Shown piece by piece: positions 1,890 to 60,200 of a stretch of DNA of 64,000 nucleotides. The position numbers and the translations under genes are program-made. The notes under the pieces were generated by a model. That model was not told the origin of the DNA, ran no database searches, and saw only the letters and a list, made by a program, of their open reading frames with translations. Source of the stretch: a bacterium (GTDB lineage: Bacteria > Acidobacteriota > HRBIN11 > JAKEFK01); assembly GCA_022616075.1 (NCBI GenBank), contig JAKEFK010000211.1, forward strand, positions 14,164 to 78,163, in the 5' to 3' direction. Each line of letters begins with the position of its first letter. The stretch's first letter is position 1.

Positions 1890-2441
1890 CTAAAGACCGC
1901 GGAATACAGCAGACACCGTTAAATTCAGATTGGGCAGCAATGGAGTCGATAGCGTGTCTGATTCCGAAAAGATGCCAACCAGCTCGTATTTGCTTTCAGC
2001 AAGTTTGAAAACTTCTATGCACCTTTTTTGCAGATCGAGCAGCCAGTACTCTCGAACACCGTAGCGAGCGTACAAATCTTTCTTAACAAAATAATCTCTT
2101 TCCCTGTGGGTGGGGGAAACAACCTCCACTGCCAGGTCGGGCGGGCCTTGGATGTTCTTTTCGCCAATAATGTTCATTCGCTCTTTCGAAATAAAAAGAA
2201 GATCCGGCTGAACGACATCATGATCGGACAGTAATACATCAAGCGGGGCGAAAAAGACTTCACCAAGATCACTTTTAGTGATGTATTCGCGAAGCAAAGA
2301 AAATAAGTTGCCAGATGCTCTTTGATGCGGCGTTGTAGGGGCTGGTGTCATCAGCAATTCTCCATCGATGAGCTCATAGCGCTGATCGTCCGGCAGCATT
2401 GCGTAGTCGTGATAAGTCATCTTAATGCGGGTTGTTAACAT
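1890..2441 (-). CDS. Uma2-family (DUF820) PD-(D/E)XK endonuclease
   Basis: YELIDGEL..MTPAP..HQ, VVQPDLLF, PDLAVEVVSP, KxxLYARYGVREYWLLD motifs. Confidence 0.92.
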   Translation of the reverse strand: MLTTRIKMTYHDYAMLPDDQRYELIDGELLMTPAPTTPHQRASGNLFSLLREYITKSDLGEVFFAPLDVLLSDHDVVQPDLLFISKERMNIIGEKNIQGPPDLAVEVVSPTHRERDYFVKKDLYARYGVREYWLLDLQKRCIEVFKLAESKYELVGIFSESDTLSTPLLPNLNLTVSAVFRGL

Positions 2442-2539
2442 ATCTTACATCTAAATTATAATTCATCCTGAAGTAAACAAACACAATACTGTAATGCCAA
2501 TAGAAGGTGGAAGGAAAATTTTCATGAAAATCGGCACCT

Positions 2540-2614
2540 GCGGGCAAGATGCCCGCGGCGTGTGATGCAGGCTGGAAGCCTTCGCTCCGTTGGCAGGCTG
2601 GAAGCCTGCGTTCC
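2540..2614. repeat. Cluster of three REP-like palindromes
   Basis: GCGGGC-AAGAT-GCCCGC at 2540-2556, and GCAGGCTGGAAGCCT(T/G)CG(C/T)TCC at 2567-2588 and 2593-2614. Confidence 0.8.
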
Positions 2615-2692
2615 GTTGACATGTTAAAATGAAGGGCATGCATGTGGTTTACGCCCGGACGCGATTTCTATCCCTACCAAGCTGAGTAGCAC

Positions 2693-5600
2693 ATGTCCGA
2701 TTACTTGAAGGAAGCACGAAAGGCGAGGCGTCAAAAGGACTTCTCTAAGGCGGGTGATTTTTTTTATCTCGCCGGGGATGAAAAGGGCGCCATGGAGATG
2801 TACTTAAAGGGCGGACACTACTCTCTCGCGGCGCGCATGCTTGAAAAAAGCGGGGAGTGGAAAGAAGCGGCCAAGTACTACGTTCAAGCCGGAAAAATTT
2901 CCGATGCTGCCGAAATTTACAGCAGCCGGTTGAAGGATTACCGCACAGCATCAGCGATGTTTGAAAAAAATGGCGATGTTTTGCGGGCATCCGAAATGGC
3001 TGAGAAAGCGGGGGACATCCCCCGTGCGGCCTTTCTGGCGGAAAAAGCTGATCTGCTCGACCGCGCGGCCCATCTTTTTGTGCAGGCGCAAAAATATGAG
3101 CGCGCCGCCGATGTTTACTTCCGGCGATTTAAACAACTCTATGCAGAAAGAGAGGAGAAGGGCTTCATTCAGAGTCACCGCACGAGGATGCAGAGAGTGG
3201 GTCATGCGGCGGGCACTCTCTACCTTCGGTACAAGAAGTACGAAAAAGCGGCTGAGGCTTTCGAGCTAAACGAAAACTACACGAAGGCGGCTGAGTGTTA
3301 TTCCCTGGCGAATCAATGGGAAAAAGCAGCGGAGCTTTACTACCGGATTCATGATTATGAGTCAGCATACCAGCTGCTGTCCCGTCTGGAAGACCGTCTC
3401 ACGAACAAAGAACTACTGGCGGATATCTGTTTTCAAAAACACGATTTCCTGCAAGCCGGCGAACTTTACTTGCAGATCGACCGCAAGCCGCGAGCCGCCG
3501 AAGCATTTGAACGGGCCGAGGATTATCAACGTGCTGCCTACTACTATGAAATGCTCGAGGATTATCCGAAAGCGGCCGAACTTAATTTAAAACAACAGGA
3601 TTTCAAAAAGGCAGCTCAATTATTCGAAAAATCAAAGAACTTCGAACAAGCGGCTCATTATTATGAAGAGGCGGATATGGTGGATCAGGCGATCCAGTGT
3701 CTGATCCGCTCGGGTGGCAGCATTCGTGCCGCAAAACTCTTAATAGAAAGAAAAAATATTCAGCCCGCGATTTCGATTCTTCAGCAGATTCATCCCGAAG
3801 ACGATGACTATTCGGAAGCCTGCATTCTGCTGGGACAACTCTTCACACAAATGGAGATGTATTCGGTGGCCCAGCAGAAATTCAAGGAAGCGATTCGGGA
3901 CCAACCTTTATCTAAAAAAAATATTGAAACTTATTACGGTCTGGCCTTTGCGTATGAAAAGGCGGCGCAATACTCCAAGGCACGCGAGATATACGAAAAA
4001 ATCATTTCAGTCGATCTGGATTTCAGCGATACGTTGAAGCGGCTTCAGCGGATCAAGACTTCGAATTTATTAGATGGCGTTCAGAGCGCTGAGTTCACAC
4101 CAACAGGTATGAAACGAATGCTGGCATCCCGATATGAGCTGATGGAAAAGCTTGGAAAGGATCCCTTCGGGAAACTATACAGGGCCATGGATACAGTTCT
4201 GGCAAGGCCCTGTCTGATCCGTCGATTCCCGGAACAGGACAAAAACATCACGCGCAATATTCTTGAGCAAACTCGCATTGTCTCCGGTCTCATCCACAGC
4301 AATATTCTGACGATCTATGACAGCGGAAAGGATGAGGACTACTACTTTGTTTGCATGGAGTATGTGGAGGGTCCGACGCTCCGGCAGCGGCTTTCTCACG
4401 GGCCGATTGAAGTTTCAGAAGTTTGCGAGCTGGTCTCCCAAATCTGTCTCGGTCTTGCTTTCGCTCACAAAAGGGGAATCGTTCATAAGAATCTTTGTCC
4501 CGAAAACATTTACTGCGCTGCAGGCAATCAAATAAAAATTTCCAATTTTGGAATCGATGCGAAATGGGAAAAAGGAAGCACTTTGATTTCAAAGCAATAT
4601 TCAAGTCCGGAACAAATTCTGGGACAGAAAGTGGATTTGCGCACGGACTTCTATTCGCTGGGAATTGTGCTATACGAAATGCTCTACGGAAAAGCACCTT
4701 TCAACGGCCAGGACGTCGAACTGCAGCACATTAAGCAAGCGCCGGCTTTTCCGGATACTTATCCGCTGCCGGTTCCTGTTTTCCTGTTGAAGATCATGCA
4801 GAAGTGCTTACATAAAGATCCCAAACGTCGTTATGCAGACGCCGAGATGATCCTGGATGAACTGGAAGTGGCTGATATTGTCGCCGGGATGATTCTGAAC
4901 CAGAGGTACGAAATCATTAAAGAGATTGGACTGGGTGGAATGGGGCACGTGTACAAAGCGCGCGATCGCGACCTAGATGAGATCGTGGCCCTCAAAGTTT
5001 TGCGCGCCGAAATCAGCACAGATCCGGTCATTCAAAAAAGATTTCTTCGCGAGATCAAAGTCACACGAATGATCGCCCATCCTTGTGTTGTAAAGGTTTT
5101 CGACACCGGCAAATACAAAGGGAATCGCTACATATCCATGGAATACATTGAAGGGATCAGTCTGGATGACTGGTTGAAGAAAGGAAAGCCTGACTTCAAA
5201 TCGATGCTGGCCGTAATCGTCAAAATCCTGCAAGGCGTTCAGGCGGCCCACACGCAAGGAATCATTCATCGTGATCTAAAACCGCAAAACGTGTTGATTG
5301 ATAAATCATTGAATCCTCATGTTCTTGATTTTGGAATTGCTCGATCGATGGACAACGTGGATGCCACAAGCGGCCAGATCATGGGTTCTCCGAAATACAT
5401 GTCGCCAGAGCAAATTCAAGGCAAGGATCTAGATGGCCGGTCGGATCAATATGCCACGGGTGTCCTGATGTTTCTCATGTTTACCGGTGAAGAACCATTC
5501 ACCGGTGAAGATCCCAGGACCATTGTTTTGAAGCACTTAAGCCAGCCGCCACCCGATATGTTGAAGCTGAATCCGGACATTCCGGATTGGATCCACAAAA

Positions 5601-9639: not shown

Positions 9640-10004
9640 TGGAACTTGCAAGAATAAAATGTGAAGCCTGCCGCAGGGATGCTCCCCAGGTTACGGAAGC
9701 GGAACTGGCGGAATACAAGCCGCAAATCCCTGATTGGAAGCTTGTGGAACGAAATGGAATTCGCCAGCTGGAACGGAGCTTTTCTTTCAAGGATTTCGCT
9801 GAGGCTCTTGCGTTTACGAATCAAGTAGGCGCGCTGGCGGAATCAGAGAATCATCATCCGGCAATTCTCACGGAGTGGGGCCGCGTCACGATATCGTGGT
9901 GGACTCATAAGATCAAAGGCCTTCACCGCAATGACTTCATTCTAGCAGCCAGAACCGATATTGTTTTTAACCGCCAAGACGCCAAGACCGCCAAGTCACG
10001 ATAG
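9639..10004 (+). CDS. phhB: Pterin-4-alpha-carbinolamine dehydratase
   Basis: [35 protein letters not shown]. Confidence 0.93.
9969..9995 (+). repeat. Solo triplet-repeat arm AACCGCCAAGACGCCAAGACCGCCAAG inside the phhB 3' end
   Basis: Three GCCAAG units at 8-9 nt period; same arm at 21467, 60122 and 63556. Confidence 0.85.
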
Positions 10005-10434: not shown

Positions 10435-10516
10435 TTTCACCGCAGAGAACGCAGAGGCCGCGGAGATAAAACAAAATCTTTTTTTCTCTGCGATCTCAGC
10501 GCTCTCGGCGGTGAAA
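10435..10516. repeat. Inverted-repeat element with 32-bp triplet-repeat arms
   Basis: TTTCACCGCAGAGAACGCAGAGGCCGCGGAGA versus reverse complement of 10485-10516: 26/32 identical, 18-nt AT-rich spacer. Confidence 0.88.
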
Positions 10517-12493
10517 AATTGAAAGGATTTTGTCGCCGACTTCCGTGCGATCCACGACATCCATTCCGGAAATTACTTCACCGTAAATCGTGTAGTTCCC
10601 GTCTAGATGGGGTTGGCGCGATTGCGTTATGAAGAATTGCGATCCGCCTGTATCCTTGCCTGCAATGGGCATTCCCACCGTTCCGCGTTTGTAAATCAGA
10701 AGATTCACCTGATCATGGATCACCTTTCCTGCTCCGCCCCAGCCATCTCCCCGCGGGTCGCCGCCCTGTATCACGAAATTCGGCACGACGCGATGAATGC
10801 GAAGTCCATTGTAAAAACCGCCGTCAGCTAGTTTCCTGATATTCTCGGCGTGCAACGGCGCATCGCAACCTGACAAACGGATCACGACATCCCCTTTCTC
10901 CAGTTTCATCGTGATCTCAATGGAATCTTGCGGCCGGCCGAAGTCCGGTGAATATTCATTCATTTTTTTTGCCGGCACTTTTCCTTGCTGATAAAGAAAA
11001 TCTTCCGGATCCTTCGGATCGCCCTTCCAGTGGTATTGTGTTCCGACAAGTTTTTTGATTCCATCGATCGCATGGCGGCGAATTGTGTATTCGGGATCCA
11101 GCAGCGCCCGCTCAAAAATCGGCATAGCTTCAGATGTATTGAAGTCAGCCAGAACATCGAGAAGCGCCACTCGGCCTTCCACTTCAGAAGGATCACTGGA
11201 AGCATCATAAGTTTTGATCAATGCAGCGAAAAACCTGCGTTCTTTTGTTTTGCCCAGCGCATCGACCGCTGTGGCCCGTAACGCAAAATCCTTATGACCG
11301 AGCAACGGCAGGAAAACCTCAGCAGTATCAGGCAAGTATTTCGTTAAAGAATCGAACGCAGCCAGCCTGACAGCGGAATCGGAATCCTGACTCAGAACTT
11401 TCAACATAGGAATTGCCGAACCGGCGGGCAGTTCAACAAGCGCCTGTGCGGTCCTCCAGCGCACCGTCCAGGATTCGTGTTTGGCTCCTTCCTGCAACAA
11501 CGACAGCGCATTCTCTTTTTGTGTCTTTGCTTGAGCCATAATCCAGCCACCGAGCAAACCCGCAGTAGCCGGACGTTCGTCAATTACACATCCCAATAGG
11601 CCCATTGCTTCCAGAGCTTTCATTCTGGTCAGATGGTTCATTGTGCTGTAGTGTTTTTGAATAGCCACACACGCAGTTTTATCATTAGAAGCGCCGATTA
11701 CATCCAGTGTATTTTGTTGAACTCGCGCATCTTTATGTTGAAGCAGACGTTCAACTTCTTCCTCTGTCAGCGGTTTTTTCATAGACCACAATGCTTTTAA
11801 AGCAAACAACAACGCGGAAGGATCTTCTGTAGACGGACTGGGTAACGGATTTGCAAGAACCTTGTGCAAAACGGCAAGGGAACGTTCGTCTGCCAAACGA
11901 TACAGAGCGTACACGTAACTCCATTGCGCCGGATCCTCTTCATTGGCCAATTCGATCAGAACATCCACGGTGCCTTTGTCTTTGATCAAAGCAAGAGCAA
12001 GCGCCGATTGTTCACGGAGAAACGCATTTTTGTCGCGAAGGAATGGGACCACCAAAACTGTCGTATCCAATCCTCCGATCCGGCCGATCGCCTCAATCGC
12101 AAGCCTTCGAACTTCCGCATCCTCATCTTTCAATAGACGCGCTGCAAACAATAAGCCGTTCTTGGACCGAATCTGTCCAATCGCAAACGCAACGTATTTT
12201 CTCACGTTAGCATTCTTGTCTTCCAACAACGGTTCCAAAAATGGCAGAATCGCTTGATTGCCGATTCGCGCTGCGGCCAGCAATGCTCTAATGCGAATCT
12301 GTTCTGATGGAAAACGAAAATAATCGGCAAGTTTGATGTCCGGCTCTGCTTCCAACATCCGCTCATTTTCGAGAATTGCGATGATTCGCAACGAATCGTT
12401 AGAAAACGCGCTCGAAGCAAGAAACATTAGAAGGATCAACGCCAGGATTCTCCCCCTTATGAAGGGGGAGACTAAGAGGGGGTTGGCATGCAT
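10496..12493 (-). CDS. Exported HEAT-repeat protein with C-terminal cyclophilin-type peptidyl-prolyl isomerase
   Basis: Multiple HEAT repeats; FYNGLRIHRVVPNFVIQGGDP, DTGGSQFFIT, HLDGNYT. Confidence 0.9.
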   Translation of the reverse strand: MHANPLLVSPFIRGRILALILLMFLASSAFSNDSLRIIAILENERMLEAEPDIKLADYFRFPSEQIRIRALLAAARIGNQAILPFLEPLLEDKNANVRKYVAFAIGQIRSKNGLLFAARLLKDEDAEVRRLAIEAIGRIGGLDTTVLVVPFLRDKNAFLREQSALALALIKDKGTVDVLIELANEEDPAQWSYVYALYRLADERSLAVLHKVLANPLPSPSTEDPSALLFALKALWSMKKPLTEEEVERLLQHKDARVQQNTLDVIGASNDKTACVAIQKHYSTMNHLTRMKALEAMGLLGCVIDERPATAGLLGGWIMAQAKTQKENALSLLQEGAKHESWTVRWRTAQALVELPAGSAIPMLKVLSQDSDSAVRLAAFDSLTKYLPDTAEVFLPLLGHKDFALRATAVDALGKTKERRFFAALIKTYDASSDPSEVEGRVALLDVLADFNTSEAMPIFERALLDPEYTIRRHAIDGIKKLVGTQYHWKGDPKDPEDFLYQQGKVPAKKMNEYSPDFGRPQDSIEITMKLEKGDVVIRLSGCDAPLHAENIRKLADGGFYNGLRIHRVVPNFVIQGGDPRGDGWGGAGKVIHDQVNLLIYKRGTVGMPIAGKDTGGSQFFITQSRQPHLDGNYTIYGEVISGMDVVDRTEVGDKILSIFHRRER

Positions 12494-18368: not shown

Positions 18369-19527
18369 GAAAATTCTATACATCGAAGCAACTTCCGGAG
18401 TTTCCGGCGACATGCTGCTCGGTGCCCTTTTGGACGCAGGCGTTCCGGTCGAAGTGCTCTCCGAAGCATGGACCGCGCTTGACATCGATAACTACGAAGT
18501 GGAAGTATTTCAAACGCAAAAAAGCGGGATGAATGCGCTACGATGCCGCGTCTCCACTCAGGAAACAAAAGGAGCGAAAACGTGGAAACAGTACCAATTG
18601 CTGCTGGAGAACTCAAAACTGCCGGAAAAGATCCGCCAACAAACGCTTTCTCTCGTGAAACGTCTCTTTGAAATTGAAGCTTCCATCCACGGATCCAGCC
18701 TTCAGAAACTACACCTCCACGAAATGGGTGGAACGGACCTGCTGCTGGACGTCACCGGAACGCTCTCTGCTCTGGATTATCTACAGCCTTCTTTGATCAA
18801 GTCTTCCCCAGTAAATACAGGCTGCGGCTTCCTCACCTTTTCTCACGGTCGCTTTCCGATTCCAGCTCCCGCAACTACTAAGCTATTAGAAGGAATATCA
18901 GTGTTTCAGAATGAAGTGGAAGGAGAATTGACGACACCTACGGGAGCGCTCTTGATCGGCTCGATTGCGAAATCATTCGGTGTGATGCCTGAAATGAAGC
19001 TGGAAAATACCGGAGTGGGAGCAGGTGAAATGGAAATTGCGGGCCATCCAAATGTATTGAGGATTTTTGTTGGAACAGGCGCAGCTCCGGAAGAAGAAAT
19101 TTACATGGTGGAAACGAATCTGGATGATTCTTCTCCTCAAGTTCTCGCTTATTTCATGGAAAAAGCATTTGAACTAGGAGCGCTGGACGTATTCTTTACT
19201 CCCATTTTTATGAAAAAGAACCGGCCGGCGGTTCGTTTAACTCTGCTCGTTTCCTCCGGCTTGCTGGAATCAATGTTGAAACTGTTGTTTTCGGAAACAA
19301 CGGCAATTGGACTTCGCTACTGGAAAGTGGATCGAAAGACTCTGGACCGGCGGTGGAGCAAAATTCAGCTGGGAAAGCAGGAGATCCGCATCAAAGAAAG
19401 TTATCTCAACGGCACTCTCGCAAATTATCAGCCCGAATATGAAGACTGCAAGAAAGCCGCCGAAAGGTTGAATACCCCGGTAAAAGAAGTGATCGCGCAA
19501 GCGATTCACAAATACTTGTCGAAGTAG
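18361..19527 (+). CDS. larC: Nickel pincer cofactor biosynthesis protein LarC
   Basis: SGVSGDMLLGALLD, PAPAT, ELTTPTGA, ETNLDD, MKKNRP, PEYEDC. Confidence 0.9.
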   Translation: MAEKILYIEATSGVSGDMLLGALLDAGVPVEVLSEAWTALDIDNYEVEVFQTQKSGMNALRCRVSTQETKGAKTWKQYQLLLENSKLPEKIRQQTLSLVKRLFEIEASIHGSSLQKLHLHEMGGTDLLLDVTGTLSALDYLQPSLIKSSPVNTGCGFLTFSHGRFPIPAPATTKLLEGISVFQNEVEGELTTPTGALLIGSIAKSFGVMPEMKLENTGVGAGEMEIAGHPNVLRIFVGTGAAPEEEIYMVETNLDDSSPQVLAYFMEKAFELGALDVFFTPIFMKKNRPAVRLTLLVSSGLLESMLKLLFSETTAIGLRYWKVDRKTLDRRWSKIQLGKQEIRIKESYLNGTLANYQPEYEDCKKAAERLNTPVKEVIAQAIHKYLSK

Positions 19528-19733
19528 TGGCAGAGCATTTACTACGCCAAGGGAACAAGCCTCAAGCTCCGCAGGGTTTTGCCCCGCACACCCACTTTCT
19601 AAGAGTAAATGCTCTGCAGCCATTCCGCGGCAAGCAGAGCATTTTCACACCGATAGTGATTTCGAGGAAAAATCAGAGTTTGTTCAACTGGGAATGTGCA
19701 TAACAGGCCGTATGGAAAATGCTCTGCCACTAC
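19524..19733. mobile_element. 210-bp MITE/REPIN-like double-hairpin element, copy 1
   Basis: 17-bp perfect terminal inverted repeat GTAGTGGCAGAGCATTT, plus an internal AAATGCTCTGC / GCAGAGCATTT pair. Homologue at 49630. Confidence 0.8.
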
Positions 19734-21466: not shown

Positions 21467-21537
21467 AACCGCCAAGGTGCCAAGGCGCCAAGAAAACCCA
21501 TAATATAAGAATTTGGCTTCTTGGCGTCTTGGCGGTT
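21467..21537. repeat. Inverted-repeat element with GCCAAG triplet arms
   Basis: AACCGCCAAGGTGCCAAGGCGCCAAG ... TTGGCTTCTTGGCGTCTTGGCGGTT between truB and lgt. Confidence 0.88.
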
Positions 21538-27510: not shown

Positions 27511-27659
27511 CTATTGAAGATTGCCAAGTCAATTATTACGGCGAAAGCACGGGCTTGAAATACCGCAGATTGCAAATTTGCTTGTTGCATGCCTCTTAAA
27601 GCGATCCACGACAAACACTTTGAAGTTTGCAATTTAGATTTTGCAATACACTATGCAAT

Positions 27660-28391
27660 ATGCAAGCTGCAATATTCAATAGATTTCTGGCGGGCGCGCG
27701 CATGATCTTTGCCTGCTCCTTCATCGCTGTTTACTTGATCATCGTGGGGATACCGGTTCTCAGCTACTGCCGGATCATGGGGAATCCGCGACTGGCTCTT
27801 TATTTGACAAAAGTGCTGGACCAAATGGTTCTCTTTCTGGGCGGAATTCGATTGAAAGTGCGCGGACTGGAGAAACTGGATCACAATCGTGGCTATGTCT
27901 ATGTGGGGAATCATAGAAGTCATGTGGACGGCGCAGCGGTTTTCCGGACCGTGCCCGGAGATGTCAGGTTCCTGATTAAGAAGGAAGCTTTCCGTATTCC
28001 TCTGGTATCTTTTGCGTTAAGCACAATGGGAATGATCGAAGTAGACCGGTCCAATCCGGAAGCTTCTTCGCGAAGCATTGACCGCGCTGTTTCAGAAATC
28101 CGATCAGGCCATTCGGTGATTCTTTTTCCGGAGGGCACACGGAGCCGGCAATCGAACATGCTTCCATTCAAAAAGGGAGCATTTGTCCTGGCAATCAAAT
28201 CTCAAGCGCCGGTAGTTCCCTTTACTTTGATTGGCGCGGAGCAGGCATTACCGCCGGACACAATTCTCCTATATGGAGGAGAGGTCGAGTTAATTTTTCA
28301 CGATCCTATTGAAACAACCGGACTCAGTCTGGAAAACCGTGAGCAGTTGTTGCAACAAGCCCAAACCCGCGTAAATTCGGCTCTTTTTTGA
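27660..28391 (+). CDS. plsC: 1-acyl-sn-glycerol-3-phosphate acyltransferase
   Basis: NHRSHVD (HX4D) and FPEGTRS motifs; start uncertain. Confidence 0.9.
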   Translation: MQAAIFNRFLAGARMIFACSFIAVYLIIVGIPVLSYCRIMGNPRLALYLTKVLDQMVLFLGGIRLKVRGLEKLDHNRGYVYVGNHRSHVDGAAVFRTVPGDVRFLIKKEAFRIPLVSFALSTMGMIEVDRSNPEASSRSIDRAVSEIRSGHSVILFPEGTRSRQSNMLPFKKGAFVLAIKSQAPVVPFTLIGAEQALPPDTILLYGGEVELIFHDPIETTGLSLENREQLLQQAQTRVNSALF

Positions 28392-28879
28392 ACAGAAGCA
28401 CGCAAAGATCGCAAAGGAAACAATATTTTATGCATCAGAAATTTAAGAAAGCTGATCGCCTAAGCAAAAGAGTCATCGGTGCGGCGATCGAAGTTCACCG
28501 AGTAATGGGACCAGGTCTTATCGAATCGATTTATCAAAAATGTTTAATACGTGAACTGCAATTATCCGGAATCCATTGCGCTTCGGAAGTAAGGATTCCG
28601 CTCGAATACAAAGGTGCAATCTTTGATGAACAACTCAAGATGGACGTTTATGTTGACGACTGTCTTATCCTGGAACTTAAAGCTGTTGAAAGTATCCTTC
28701 CGATTCATAAAGCACAGATTTTGACCTACATGAAGTTACTAGACGTTCCTGTAGGGCTTCTAATCAACTTTCACAGTACGCTACTAAAGCATGGCATCAG
28801 CCGTTTAATTCTTGCGGGTGCTGACAAATCAACGTAAGAAATCTGTCTTTGCGTCCTTCGCGACCTTCTGTTCAAAAAA
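28384..28879. mobile_element. Putative 496-bp element: GxxExxY gene bounded by 33-bp imperfect inverted repeats
   Basis: 28384-28416 versus reverse complement of 28847-28879: 28/33 identical, outermost 15 nt perfect. Confidence 0.65.
28430..28837 (+). CDS. GxxExxY protein (PD-(D/E)XK nuclease superfamily)
   Basis: VIGAAIEVH..GPGLIESIY (GxxExxY), D..V....ILELKAV, AQILTY, GLLINF. Confidence 0.93.
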   Translation: MHQKFKKADRLSKRVIGAAIEVHRVMGPGLIESIYQKCLIRELQLSGIHCASEVRIPLEYKGAIFDEQLKMDVYVDDCLILELKAVESILPIHKAQILTYMKLLDVPVGLLINFHSTLLKHGISRLILAGADKST

Positions 28880-28891
28880 GAGGTTCGTTAT

Positions 28892-29965
28892 TTAGACGGG
28901 ACGGTAGATGGTGTCCCGCTTGAAAGGAGCGTAACCCGCATCTCGGATCAGACGGCGCAAATCTTCTTCGGTAGCCTGAAAATGAGCTCCAGCAGCGGAA
29001 ACAACATTCTCCTCAATCATGACGCTACCCATATCGTTGGCGCCAAATTGAAGAGCAACCTGGCCGAGTTTTAATCCTTGAGTGAGCCAGGAACTCTGCA
29101 CGTTTTCTATGTTATCCAGAAAGATTCTTGAGATTGCGAGAGTTTTCAAGAAATCTGTTGCAGTAGAAGTGGGACAAGTCAACAATGTGTTCTCCTGTTG
29201 AAACGTCCAACAGATAAAGGACATGAATCCACCAGTGCGATCCTGCAAGTCTCGAATTCGTTGTAAATGTTCCGCTCGTTCTTCCAGTTTCTCAACGTGA
29301 CCAAACATCATGGTAGCGCTGGAACGTAGATTCAACCGGTGTGCTTCCTCGTGAACGGCGAGCCATTCGTCCGTCATGCATTTGCGCGGAGAAATAATTT
29401 TTCGCACGCGATCCACCAATATTTCGCCGCCACCACCCGGCAAGGAATCCAGTCCGGCAGCACCCAGGCGTTCCATCACAACGGGAAGAGGGAGTTTTGA
29501 AACTTTGCAAATGTTTGTGATTTCCGGGGGCGAAAAACCATGAATCCACACGGAGGGAAACTTCGTTTTAAAATGGCGCAGAAGCCCTTCGTACCATTCC
29601 AATTTGAGTTCAGGATGGAGCCCGCCTTGAAGCAAAATACCAGTGCCCCCAAGCGCAATTGTCTCTTCGATTTTCTTGTCCAGTAGATCCAGTCCATGCA
29701 AGTAGGAATCCGATTCTAGAGAAGAGCGATAGAACGCGCAAAAAGAACACTCCACATAGCAAACATTCGTGTAATTAATATTGCGGTCCACAATGTAACT
29801 AACCCGGGGACCGGAATGAAATTTGTGCCGTACGTAATCTGCCGCCATGCCGATTTCCAAAAGTTCACTGGAAAAAAACAATTGAACGGCATCCTCCTGT
29901 GATAACCGCTCATTCCTGTACACTTTGTCCAGAATAGATGTTTTGTTTTCTACGACTACATCCAT
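28892..29965 (-). CDS. mqnC: Cyclic dehypoxanthinyl futalosine synthase (radical SAM)
   Basis: IVDRNINYTNVCYVECSFC (CxxxCxxC), FGANDMGSVMIEENVV. Confidence 0.92.
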   Translation of the reverse strand: MDVVVENKTSILDKVYRNERLSQEDAVQLFFSSELLEIGMAADYVRHKFHSGPRVSYIVDRNINYTNVCYVECSFCAFYRSSLESDSYLHGLDLLDKKIEETIALGGTGILLQGGLHPELKLEWYEGLLRHFKTKFPSVWIHGFSPPEITNICKVSKLPLPVVMERLGAAGLDSLPGGGGEILVDRVRKIISPRKCMTDEWLAVHEEAHRLNLRSSATMMFGHVEKLEERAEHLQRIRDLQDRTGGFMSFICWTFQQENTLLTCPTSTATDFLKTLAISRIFLDNIENVQSSWLTQGLKLGQVALQFGANDMGSVMIEENVVSAAGAHFQATEEDLRRLIRDAGYAPFKRDTIYRPV

Positions 29966-30736: not shown

Positions 30737-30804
30737 GCGTTTGCGCGTCTTTGCGTCACCGCGTAATGACGCGAAGACCCGGAAACGCGCTGACGCGAAG
30801 ACGC
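30737..30804. repeat. GACGCGAAGACGCG-type short repeat / hairpin
   Basis: 30737-30758 and 30767-30789 form a near-perfect inverted pair (3 mismatches), with an extra partial unit at 30791-30804. Confidence 0.6.
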
Positions 30805-49615: not shown

Positions 49616-49629
49616 CCAGTCATTTTAGC

Positions 49630-49841
49630 GTAGTGGCAGAGCATTTGCTATTCTGCTCGAACAGATTCACTACTTCCAAGACACATCGACTAGCATGAAC
49701 AAATCATCATTACAGCAAATGCTCTGCAGCAGTTTTGAAATATAAGCAGAGCATTTTGTGCCGATACAGAATTTCAAGCAAAATTCTAGTTTAGACTCCA
49801 AACTATTCATGTGCGCTGGATGGAAAATGCTCTGCCACTAC
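49630..49841. mobile_element. 212-bp MITE/REPIN-like double-hairpin element, copy 2
   Basis: Same 17-bp terminal repeat GTAGTGGCAGAGCATTT and internal repeat pair as 19524-19733. Confidence 0.8.
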
Positions 49842-49858
49842 GTTGAATCTGTGAAGAA

Positions 49859-59144: not shown

Positions 59145-59324
59145 TCAATTTCTCGTCGGTCTCGTTGGCACATTCATTTCCAAACAGGAGTGAGTGGTTC
59201 TTCAATTGGAACCGTGTAAAGTACCTTTCGTATCCGATTGTGGAACTGTGGAGCCTTGTTTCGTACGGTTCAATCCCGGATTCGCCACAACGAGCGATAA
59301 TTCAGCTTATTGGAGTTTTAACTT

Positions 59325-59391
59325 AACACAGAGGCGCAGAGACACAGAGAAAAACATTTTTCTAATCTCTGTGCCTCTGTGTCTCTGTGTT
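59325..59391. repeat. Inverted-repeat element with (A/G)CAGAG triplet arms
   Basis: AACACAGAGGCGCAGAGACACAGAGA versus reverse complement of 59366-59391: 23/26 identical. Confidence 0.88.
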
Positions 59392-59394
59392 GAA

Positions 59395-59763
59395 TTAATC
59401 TACTTTATTAGATTTGCGGGCGGGGAGTGTGAGTGCGAGCTTGTCAACAAACTCGTAGAAGCGGTCTTTGTAATTCCGGCTCCAGGTCAGTTCTGTGCCG
59501 TCACTAAGGATCACGTGATATTCACCTTTCAACCATGGTTTCAATTCCCGAATCGAATCGACGTTCACGATATAGGAGCGATGGATCCGAATAAACGATT
59601 CAGGATCCAATTCCCCCTCCAGAGTCTGGATACCGGCGCGCACCGGATAATAATTCCCTTCACAATGAAGATGACTGTATTTTCCTTTGGCCTCAATCCA
59701 GTGAATTTCTTCCTGATTCACAAACAACAAGCTTCCACTAGAGCGAATCAAGAGTCTTTTCAT
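59395..59763 (-). CDS. Stand-alone LytTR DNA-binding domain protein
   Basis: EIHWIEAKGKY, FIRIHRSYIVN, G.ELTWSRNY; no receiver domain. ATG 59763 or TTG 59811. Confidence 0.85.
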   Translation of the reverse strand: MKRLLIRSSGSLLFVNQEEIHWIEAKGKYSHLHCEGNYYPVRAGIQTLEGELDPESFIRIHRSYIVNVDSIRELKPWLKGEYHVILSDGTELTWSRNYKDRFYEFVDKLALTLPARKSNKVD

Positions 59764-60115: not shown

Positions 60116-60121
60116 AAGCTC

Positions 60122-60196
60122 AACCGCCAAGGCGCCAAGAACGTCAAGAAAAAACTAAAAATATTTTGACGTTGGTGCCATAGCGTCTTGGCGGTT
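60122..60196. repeat. Inverted-repeat element with GCCAAG triplet arms (degenerate right arm)
   Basis: AACCGCCAAGGCGCCAAGAACGTCAAG ... AGCGTCTTGGCGGTT. Confidence 0.8.
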
Positions 60197-60200
60197 TGAA

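Follow-up and report, generated by a model that had tools for sequence, protein, structure and literature searches.

Structure of the boxed GxxExxY unit

The locus described here raises the question of whether a small nuclease gene enclosed by long inverted repeats forms an element of its own, in which gene and repeats are inserted, inherited and perhaps copied together. The gene encodes a GxxExxY protein and lies in a 64-kb stretch of an Acidobacteriota contig (JAKEFK010000211.1). This stretch is called the window below, and coordinates refer to it throughout, while L-numbers (L003, L178 and so on) denote the comparison loci that we fetched. We found that the gene and the inverted repeats on either side of it, here called arms, make up a block of 502 bp from arm end to arm end (28381-28882). 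This block is very probably a real, block-inserted element of a kind found across the whole family, and its mobilization by the nuclease is possible rather than probable.

The arms were delimited by reading the sequence and with a repeat finder. They are 36 nt long and 86% complementary, and the repeat finder located no longer inverted repeat in the window; zero occurrences of the arm sequence are expected by chance (100 shuffles). From the outside inward, the window arm consists of a T-run, the terminal unit GAACAGAAG and two CGCAAAG/CGCGAAG units set apart by 2-nt spacers. This gives a three-unit grammar, GAACAGAAG-ca-CGCAAAG-at-CGCAAAG, mirrored on the right as CTTTGCG-tc-CTTCGCG-ac-CTTCTGTTC, in which the spacers of the two arms are non-complementary (CA vs GT and AT vs GA). 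The initial annotation of this DNA had described 33-nt core arms (28384-28416 and 28847-28879) identical at 28 of 33 positions, which enclose the GxxExxY open reading frame (ORF) alone with margins of 13 and 9 nt; it had placed the unit between the convergent genes plsC and mqnC, with the left end overlapping the plsC TGA (28389-28391). Our analysis bears out each of these points (Table 1). No second GxxExxY ORF is present in the window. The left margin and the inner end of the left arm together provide a purine-rich, Shine-Dalgarno (SD)-like stretch, AAAGGAAA, ahead of the GxxExxY ATG.

The predicted protein matches PF13366 (PDDEXK_3; E=1.4e-39, 135.5 bits against a cut-off of 22) and TIGR04256 (GxxExxY; E=1.7e-40, 138 bits against a cut-off of 35). 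It contains the motif G29-L-I-E32-S-I-Y35, its putative catalytic residues D72 and E82-L-K84 are intact, and G29, E32, Y35, D72, E82 and K84 are invariant in an alignment of 20 homologs. PF13366 was the sole Pfam domain of the ORF, with no transposase, recombinase, DDE or HUH-Y1 domain, in agreement with the earlier statement that DDE, HUH and recombinase motifs are absent. An AlphaFold (AF2) model, with a predicted local distance difference test (pLDDT) score of 87.9, has the topology H-H-E-E-E-H-E and a restriction-endonuclease-like alpha/beta fold. The best PDB matches to this fold were all PD-(D/E)XK proteins (Cas4 SSO0001, 4ic1; the lambda and LHK exonucleases; 3ijm), but they were weak and generic (E ~1e-2, template modelling score ~0.5), and the fold search suggested no mechanism, for instance that of a junction resolvase. 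By sequence, no solved structure matched the protein at E-values up to 1. The PF13366/TIGR04256 family comprises 18,792 representative clusters at 50% identity, and some of its members (P0241, P0252, P0254, P0257 and others; 266-314 aa) match in two stretches and so contain two GxxExxY domains in tandem. A survey of PD-(D/E)XK proteins lists PF13366 as 'Unknown' with 'multiple transfers' and reports its patchy spread over multiple phyla (PMC3424549).

Packaging across the GxxExxY family

We fetched 80 GxxExxY loci from species-representative genomes of about ten phyla, of which 76 were testable. The sampling covered Verrucomicrobiota, Planctomycetota, several Proteobacteria classes, Chloroflexi, Acidobacteriota, Gemmatimonadota, Bacteroidota, Lentisphaerae and Sumerlaeia. 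For scoring, the 150-nt flank upstream of each gene was matched locally to the reverse-complemented downstream flank and the best match taken, and controls had the identical geometry shifted by 1.2-2.4 kb. A flanking inverted repeat above the 99th percentile of the shifted controls was observed at 63 of the 76 loci, with a median score of 20 vs 8 in the controls. Inverted-arm packaging is the norm for the GxxExxY family across phyla; a general lack of such arms, which the initial annotation had named as the outcome that would speak against an element, is not what the 63 loci show.

The arms follow a common grammar, with a T-rich outer end, a terminal unit and then two to five direct units of 8-9 nt that have a CNNAG core. 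Terminal units are either of type I, (G/T)AACAG(A/G)AG, or of type II, CACC(A/G)CAGAG or AACCGCAAAG, and the direct units are spaced by 9 nt in 74 cases and by 8 nt in 28. When the two arms of one element are compared, mismatches affect 1-8% at the core positions C..AG, 25-37% in the spacers and 21% at the R position. The low mismatch of the cores relative to the spacers indicates that the units are conserved as sequence, beyond serving as mere pairing partners. Median distances are 8 nt from arm to start codon and 5 nt from stop codon to arm, and a unit measures ~497 bp. Cultured organisms are represented by Bacteroides finegoldii, with a unit between radA and the gene for a FAD-dependent protein (30-nt arms, TTCACCACAGAGGACGCAGAGGACACGGAG), and by Gemmatirosa kalamazoonensis, with GAACCGCAGAGGACGCAGAGG doublets flanking the gene. 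In L009, L031, L062, L069 and L181 both flanks are complete hairpin doublets in their own right.

A second gene family was found in the same kind of setting. The fetched loci contained five ORFs of PF05635 (S23p, a four-helix bundle), and all five were boxed by inverted arms of 7-nt direct units outside rRNA (Table 1). The heptamers varied, with GTTATTT, ATTTACG, TGGAAGA, GGTAAGA and ACGGTNT observed.

Arm dialect and protein subfamily

The arm dialect tracks the protein subfamily, not the host phylum. Proteins with the full-length MHPKF... N-terminus (sub1) had type I arms in 26 cases and type II arms in 2, while those with a shorter N-terminus (sub2) had type I arms in 4 and type II arms in 12 (Fisher's exact p=6e-6, with a crude regular-expression classification that leaves ~45% of loci unclassified). 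Planctomycetota and Verrucomicrobiota each include both subfamily/arm combinations. The NusA of the window has relatives named as Acidobacteriota (76% identity) and Vicinamibacteria (52%), by themselves a weak pointer to Acidobacteriota. The window has a sub1 protein with type I arms, as in Verrucomicrobiota, while other Acidobacteriota (L064, L082) have type II arms. Joint movement and evolution of arms and gene would produce such a match, whereas a gene landing in any hairpin the host offers would hardly do so.

One planctomycete locus (L042) carries adjacent GxxExxY units at 1739-2269 and 2893-3446, each with its own dialect (CACCGCGGAGAGCGCAGAG vs CACCACAAAGGACACCGAG).

Occupied and empty plsC/mqnC sites

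Contigs with occupied and empty sites were found by exact-protein look-ups and by a metagenome scan anchored on MqnC. The arrangement plsC-[arms and gene]-mqnC was observed in seven contigs (the window, L003, L005, L006, L007, L088 and L091), in which MqnC is 94-100% and the GxxExxY protein 80-100% identical to the window. The mqnC stop codon lies 9 nt from the right arm in the window and adjoins the arm in L005, L006, L007, L088 and L091. The four next-closest relatives (L178, L093, L089 and L090) have kept the vitK2-mqnC synteny and the convergent plsC, but neither a GxxExxY gene, nor a periodic arm, nor a hairpin was observed at their plsC/mqnC junction. The plsC TAG overlaps the mqnC TAA in L178 (NusA 91% and MqnC 90% identical to the window), the two ORFs overlap in L089 (MqnC 85%), and spacers of 47 nt and ~53 nt separate the genes in L093 (MqnC 86%) and L090 (MqnC 82%), respectively. 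The PlsC C-termini at the empty sites (VESAFHLK*, VESVFAV*, VESAYRSSTIR* and VESGFRAVV*, asterisks marking stops) depart from the V(N/E)SALF* of occupied sites precisely at the start of the left arm. In L005 the T-run is 1 nt shorter, and PlsC reads through the entire left arm. In L178, mqnC is called as two ORFs (3834-4911; 227 and 111 aa) as the result of a frameshift, which may reflect a long-read assembly error or a pseudogene.

These sites are explained most simply if the ancestor of a genus-level clade gained the 502-bp block once, with the arm ends as its boundaries; alternatively, the outgroups may have lost it precisely on one or more occasions. Empty plsC-mqnC sites in relatives were what the initial annotation had proposed to look for, and it had taken syntenic fixation across the clade as a sign against an element. 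The unit is indeed fixed and old where MqnC is at least 94% identical, and the site is empty in the four relatives at 82-90%.

Table 1. Features of the window and, where a locus is named, of the comparison loci (positions in that locus).
Feature	Position	Strand	Description
plsC-like acyltransferase gene (PF01553)	27627..28391	+	last residues L-F-stop encoded by left arm
Left arm	28381..28416	+	86-100% conserved in syntenic orthologs vs 39-56% identity at four-fold sites
Left-arm outer end	28381..28389		CTC + T6
Left-arm terminal unit	28390..28398		GAACAGAAG
Left-arm inner units	28401..28407; 28410..28416		spacer CA, CGCAAAG; spacer AT, CGCAAAG
Left margin	28417..28429	+	13 nt, GAAACAATATTTT
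GxxExxY gene	28430..28837	+	135 aa, minimal PD-(D/E)XK nuclease; single ORF inside arms
Right margin	28838..28846	+	9 nt
Right arm	28847..28882	+	mirror of left arm
Right-arm inner units	28847..28853; 28856..28862		CTTTGCG, then TC; CTTCGCG, then AC
Right-arm outer part	28865..28873; 28874..28879		CTTCTGTTC; A6, then GAG
mqnC	28892..29965	-	futalosine pathway radical-SAM enzyme; Radical_SAM and CofH_C; convergent with plsC
Solo arm	9966..9996	+	TTTAACCGCCAAGA-CGCCAAGA-CCGCCAAG; no partner detectable
Empty doublet	10435..10516		TTTCACCGCAGAG-AACGCAGAG-GCCGCGGAG, short loop, mirror; exactly between convergent stop codons
Empty doublet	21467..21537		AACCGCCAAGG-TGCCAAGG-CGCCAAG, loop, mirror; TruB-Lgt spacer, co-directional genes
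Empty doublet	59318..59398		TTAACACAGAGG-CGCAGAG-ACACAGAG, loop, mirror
Empty doublet	60120..60197		AACCGCCAAGG-CGCCAAGA-ACGTCAAG, loop, mirror
Boxed PF05635 ORF, L009	4470..5033		
Boxed PF05635 ORF, L036	5386..5859		
Boxed PF05635 ORF, L046	4499..5457		
Boxed PF05635 ORF, L052	597..1141		
Boxed PF05635 ORF, L070	1230..1657		

Selection on gene and arms, and genomic carriage

Both the gene and its arms are held by purifying selection. Among the syntenic orthologs the ratio of nonsynonymous to synonymous substitution (dN/dS) for GxxExxY is 0.04-0.08, with dS values of 0.64-1.37 for mqnC and of 1 or more for GxxExxY. As synonymous sites are saturated, a long period of vertical inheritance has followed the gain of the unit. 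The arms are 89-91% identical among the orthologs vs 39-56% at four-fold degenerate sites, and their differences lie at the spacers and the R position.

In L007 (529-966) the GxxExxY gene has lost 43 nt close to its 3' end, and the frameshifted ORF runs through the right arm into mqnC. Both arms are intact despite the frameshift, which may mean that the arms outlast a decaying gene.

The GxxExxY family is essentially chromosomal. Plasmid carriage was found in 8 of 72,556 records, mostly megaplasmids; no viral carriage was confirmed in IMG/VR contigs, and none was found in phage records. A defence or toxin system was considered and rejected, as the GxxExxY protein matches none of the PADLOC families.

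Strong selection on gene and arms, long vertical inheritance, rarity on plasmids, absence from phage records and the lack of a defence-system match would all suit a domesticated host nuclease with a housekeeping or stress function, whose unit arrays act as operators for its regulation, by itself or by another factor, and whose presence and absence reflect ordinary horizontal gain and loss. We consider this explanation very unlikely. It leaves unaccounted for the scattered intergenic gene-less doublets of like grammar, the exact arm-to-arm boundaries of a block slotted between overlapping stop codons, and the placement of arms at both ends of the ORF and not at a promoter, of which the unit has none. 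Nor does it explain the patchy multi-phylum distribution of PF13366 (PMC3424549).

Expression and transcript structure

A consensus scan found no promoter-like site within the unit. The upstream neighbour was co-directional in 33 of 43 loci (p=6e-4) and ended at a median of 8 nt from the arm, and the downstream neighbour was co-directional in 31 of 46. Transcription reading through from the co-directional neighbour upstream, plsC in the window, probably accounts for expression of the gene. An intrinsic terminator was rejected as an explanation of the arms, since on either strand the stem is preceded by the T-run and followed by the A-run. In the predicted RNA fold of 28375-28890 the arms are paired in both the minimum free energy and the centroid structure (z=-4.16). 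Rfam gave no family at the gathering threshold in the 64-kb window (no tRNA, rRNA or riboswitch) and no match at E-values up to 1 on 28300-28950.

These observations bear on an element that would act at the RNA level, after the manner of the ORF-bearing intervening sequences (IVS) of 23S rRNA. The arms would matter chiefly in the transcript, as a stem of ~36 bp closing the ORF in a loop, and cleavage of this stem, by RNase III or by the encoded nuclease if it acts on RNA, would release the insert from the polycistronic RNA of the host. The stem would control translation of a potentially toxic nuclease, and mobility, if any, would follow another route. Such an element would fit the position of the units directly behind co-directional genes, often within operons and with no promoter of their own, and the paired arms of the predicted fold. 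It would also fit the SD-like left arm (AAGG/GGAG, purine-rich), the anti-SD-like right arm (CCUUC/CUCC), the heptamer arms of the PF05635 genes in the fetched loci, and an architecture like that of the Coxiella 23S rRNA IVS (PMC4990558). The differences between arms point the other way. On the sense strand they showed no wobble bias, with 46 of the G.U type vs 59 of the A.C type at 48 loci, and RNA-only structure as the selected feature was rejected because G.U-type differences are not the commoner ones. Moreover, mismatches cluster at the spacers while the cores are conserved in sequence across phyla, for which pairing alone is insufficient, RNase III being barely sequence-specific. With block insertion and gene-less doublets left unexplained and no Rfam match, we regard an RNA-level element as unlikely.

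Gene-less periodic hairpins

Four empty hairpin doublets and one solo arm of the unit-type grammar were observed elsewhere in the window, all intergenic and close to gene ends (Table 1). The initial annotation had held that the boxed arms and the empty doublets are built alike; this is true of the three-unit grammar, but not of the exact spelling of the units. The spellings of the window empties match arm dialects that flank GxxExxY genes elsewhere (e.g. L077, L079, L049 and L018), and empties with arms matching those of an adjacent GxxExxY gene were observed in L037, L009, L031, L043 and L170-177.

The last of these loci are from Luteolibacter (L170-L177, ~2270-4570; MoxR - GxxExxY - DUF58), and their GxxExxY protein is 100% identical across samples. 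A 186-bp module with an empty doublet of the same arm type is repeated there in tandem from ~1 to ~8 times (98% identical copies), a range that may in part be an assembly artefact, given the N gaps. The DUF58 start codon lies inside the doublet loop.

Two spacers could be followed in relatives of the window. The TruB-Lgt doublet, of the AACCGCCAAG type, is shared by the window and L178 (~11870-11960, NusA 91%), and in L179 (~5510-5600, NusA 86%) the same spot has another periodic hairpin, with units of the TCTTGATC type. Upstream of the vitK2/mqnA-like gene, the window has a CGCGAAG/CGCAAAG hairpin (30741-30803) with unit polarity reversed relative to ordinary doublets. This spacer contains GTTCAAAG hairpins in L005 (~5340-5420), L006 (~2820-2895), L007 (~2780-2840) and L178 (3008-3066), and no hairpin in L089, L090 and L093. 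The differences among these vitK2 spacers indicate that periodic hairpins turn over at a fixed intergenic site.

Further gene-less hairpins, with the spellings AGCGGTGAGC, GGTCAAC, ACCAATGG and CATTCAAC, were seen in L039, L063 (3068-3148), L065 (152-208), L035 (1042-1365), L029 (4134-4211) and L027 (2601-2693). Periodic-unit hairpins look like a broad, mostly undescribed class of intergenic repeats in these phyla. An unrelated repeat of non-periodic type, GTAGTGGCAGAGCATTT, occurs as inverted pairs at two places in the window (49624-49847; 19524-19733 and 19593-19658).

Proposed mechanism and significance

Our preferred reading, which we hold tentatively and which falls a little short of probable, is that the 502-bp block is a small selfish element of one gene, with arms that serve its own PD-(D/E)XK nuclease as arrays of recognition units, and that this nuclease drives its copying. 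The arms would be arrays of putative binding sites, with one unit per protomer, which the protein might recognize either in double-stranded DNA or in a single strand that has folded. Its cuts would fall at or near the arm ends, and host replication or repair would copy the arm-delimited DNA, either the gene unit or an empty doublet, to new intergenic sites. Copying would proceed at a very low rate and leave no target duplication, with host functions doing the joining. Because of this low rate, the unit would behave within any lineage as a vertically inherited resident, as do the tyrosine transposases associated with repetitive extragenic palindromic (REP) sequences and the hairpins formed by such sequences (RAYT/REPIN). 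A minimal selfish element like RAYT/REPIN was also what the initial annotation had proposed. The architecture, the family-wide arms, the block insertion and the empties in the same genome support that proposal in part; near-identical copies in differing contexts and target-site duplications were not found.

Several observations weigh against nuclease-driven copying, the strongest being that PF05635 genes, which do not encode nucleases, are boxed alike, so that packaging needs no nuclease. Arms were lacking at 13 of the 76 testable GxxExxY loci. No target-site duplication was detected at 41 loci (mean best direct repeat of 2.46 nt vs 2.59 nt in shuffled pairings). An all-against-all comparison of 97 units, with one genome per species, gave no sign of recent movement, near-identical genes being found at orthologous loci only, and identical proteins from up to 60 collection blocks mapped to one locus each (24 and 23 contigs read). 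Stand-alone PD-(D/E)XK nucleases can cut but have no known strand-transfer activity, and a host partner must therefore be assumed. The window empties are spelled CGCCAAG, CGCAGAG and CACAGAG, and the arms of the window's boxed unit CGCAAAG. Finally, periodic hairpins of many other unit types occur without any linked gene.

Periodic inverted hairpins as a whole could be an abundant, independent class of intergenic repeats in these phyla, which some other factor makes or moves or which arise through slippage and gene conversion. GxxExxY, PF05635 and other small genes would then end up in their loops or target them specifically, and the nuclease would not mobilize the arms. This account draws on the number of gene-less hairpins with unrelated unit types (GTTCAAAG, TCTTGATC, GGTCAAC and AGCGGTGAGC), on the turnover of hairpins at orthologous spacers of close relatives, on the two unrelated gene families that occupy the loop position, and on the loop length of the empties (8-21 nt), which approximates the summed margins of occupied units. 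It would, however, require two events on one branch instead of one at the plsC/mqnC site, as none of the four empty sites has a hairpin. GxxExxY also pairs specifically with CNNAG-core arms of 8-9-nt units and PF05635 with heptamers, and the arm dialect follows the protein subfamily across host phyla. We judge this account to be quite unlikely.

Nuclease-driven copying, if it occurs, would have wider consequences. GxxExxY nucleases and their CNNAG arms would form an undescribed and very widespread class of mobile elements, in which a stand-alone nuclease recognizes periodic unit arrays and drives the duplication-free spread of hairpin-bounded DNA, with or without the gene, and together with the PF05635 units they would constitute a 'gene-in-the-loop' superfamily of hairpins. 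We put this forward as a somewhat doubtful extension; were it true, the classical 23S rRNA IVS would be merely the rRNA-resident tip of that superfamily. PF13366/TIGR04256 is among the larger families without an assigned function, and the arm boxing, the empty site in relatives, the co-selection of arms and gene and the match of dialect to subfamily turn the anonymous label 'GxxExxY protein' into a testable system with a candidate substrate. The occurrence of an IVS-like architecture outside rRNA, with two different genes, also bears on a question unsolved since the early 1990s, namely the origin and movement of ORF-bearing rRNA intervening sequences. At a more practical level, insertions of units and empty doublets lie inside operons and across stop codons, where they change the C-termini of proteins (PlsC in the window), and they cause spurious N- and C-terminal extensions in gene calls. 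Units and doublets also generate hypervariable tandem arrays, as at the Luteolibacter locus, and are present in gut Bacteroides.

Comparison with known systems

We found no description of the association of GxxExxY (PF13366/TIGR04256) genes with such arms in the literature searched, a scope that left out most subscription journals and the database family notes. The name GxxExxY was scarce in this literature, and one mention was an incidental domain annotation.

The unit resembles RAYT/REPIN systems in that an enzyme gene is flanked by repeats, with four doublets and one solo arm present gene-less in 64 kb, although their spelling differs from that of the flanking arms. Other shared features are long vertical inheritance at a fixed locus (seven contigs, MqnC 94-100%), the absence of target-site duplication and a chromosomal location. 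However, the enzyme is a PD-(D/E)XK protein without the HUH-Y1 (IS200-like) tyrosine transposase, and each arm is a run of direct units that is not self-complementary, unlike REPs and REPINs, with the hairpin forming only between the two arms. The arms also hug the ORF with margins of 5-13 nt, and the link between enzyme and repeats is here an inferred one. The unit is not a RAYT/REPIN member, because the HUH-Y1 enzyme is absent and the arms are not REP palindromes. In L008 (660-1495), a RAYT-like ORF flanked by classical REP palindromes (GGTAGGGCGAGGCGTCCCCGCCGAGCC) was observed 1.5 kb from a GxxExxY unit; it serves as an internal positive control of the repeat scan and indicates that both systems can coexist in one genome.

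Several other classes were considered. Like miniature inverted-repeat transposable elements (MITEs) and the DDE transposons with terminal inverted repeats (TIR), the unit is bounded by terminal inverted repeats, has repeated units next to its termini and is accompanied by short derivatives without the gene, but both the DDE transposase and the target-site duplication are absent. Like IS200/IS605 elements it is small, has structured DNA ends and shows no target duplication; their ends, however, are differing imperfect hairpins and not mutual inverted copies, and their enzyme is of the HUH type. Membership in the DDE/TIR transposons, the MITEs and IS200/IS605 failed in each case. An integron attC-like cassette was likewise rejected, as in most loci the gene lies inside one palindrome and is not flanked by two complete palindromes, and an integrase is absent. 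Among enzymes of the PD-(D/E)XK fold, TnsA of Tn7 and homing endonucleases such as I-Ssp6803I cut element ends or empty target sites. TnsA depends on the TnsB transposase, and homing enzymes reside in introns and target the empty allele. The GxxExxY unit, in contrast, has no partner gene or intron, and its recognition-like units are on the element itself.

The short tandemly repeated repetitive (STRR) heptamers of cyanobacteria and Beggiatoaceae (TAACTGA repeats) are abundant intergenic 7-nt direct repeats near start and stop codons that are suspected to be mobile or protein-bound (PMC4679880). They mostly form direct arrays that do not enclose a gene, whereas the GxxExxY units form inverted arms around an ORF.

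The closest known architecture, which the initial annotation had missed, is that of the 23S rRNA IVS of Leptospira, Coxiella and Brucella, which are regarded as selfish and whose mobility mechanism is obscure. The Coxiella IVS is described as a selfish element of 428 nt whose terminal inverted repeats form a stem of 28 bp with an S23p ORF in the loop; an AG-rich, SD-like stretch and tandem heptamers (GACAGAT) precede the start codon, and RNase III excises the element (PMC4990558). The GxxExxY unit differs from the IVS in its ORF, which is a PF13366 PD-(D/E)XK protein and not an S23p/PF05635 four-helix bundle, and in its units, which are 8-9 nt long and share a conserved CNNAG core, those of the IVS being variable heptamers. 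It is located between the protein-coding genes plsC and mqnC and not in a 23S rRNA helix (Rfam found no rRNA in the window), and the wobble test gave no sign of RNA-level selection on its arms. Both nonetheless are units of ~430-500 nt in which terminal inverted repeats of ~28-36 bp close one small ORF in the loop, and both have short tandem direct repeats in the arm by the start codon together with an AG-rich, SD-like stretch.

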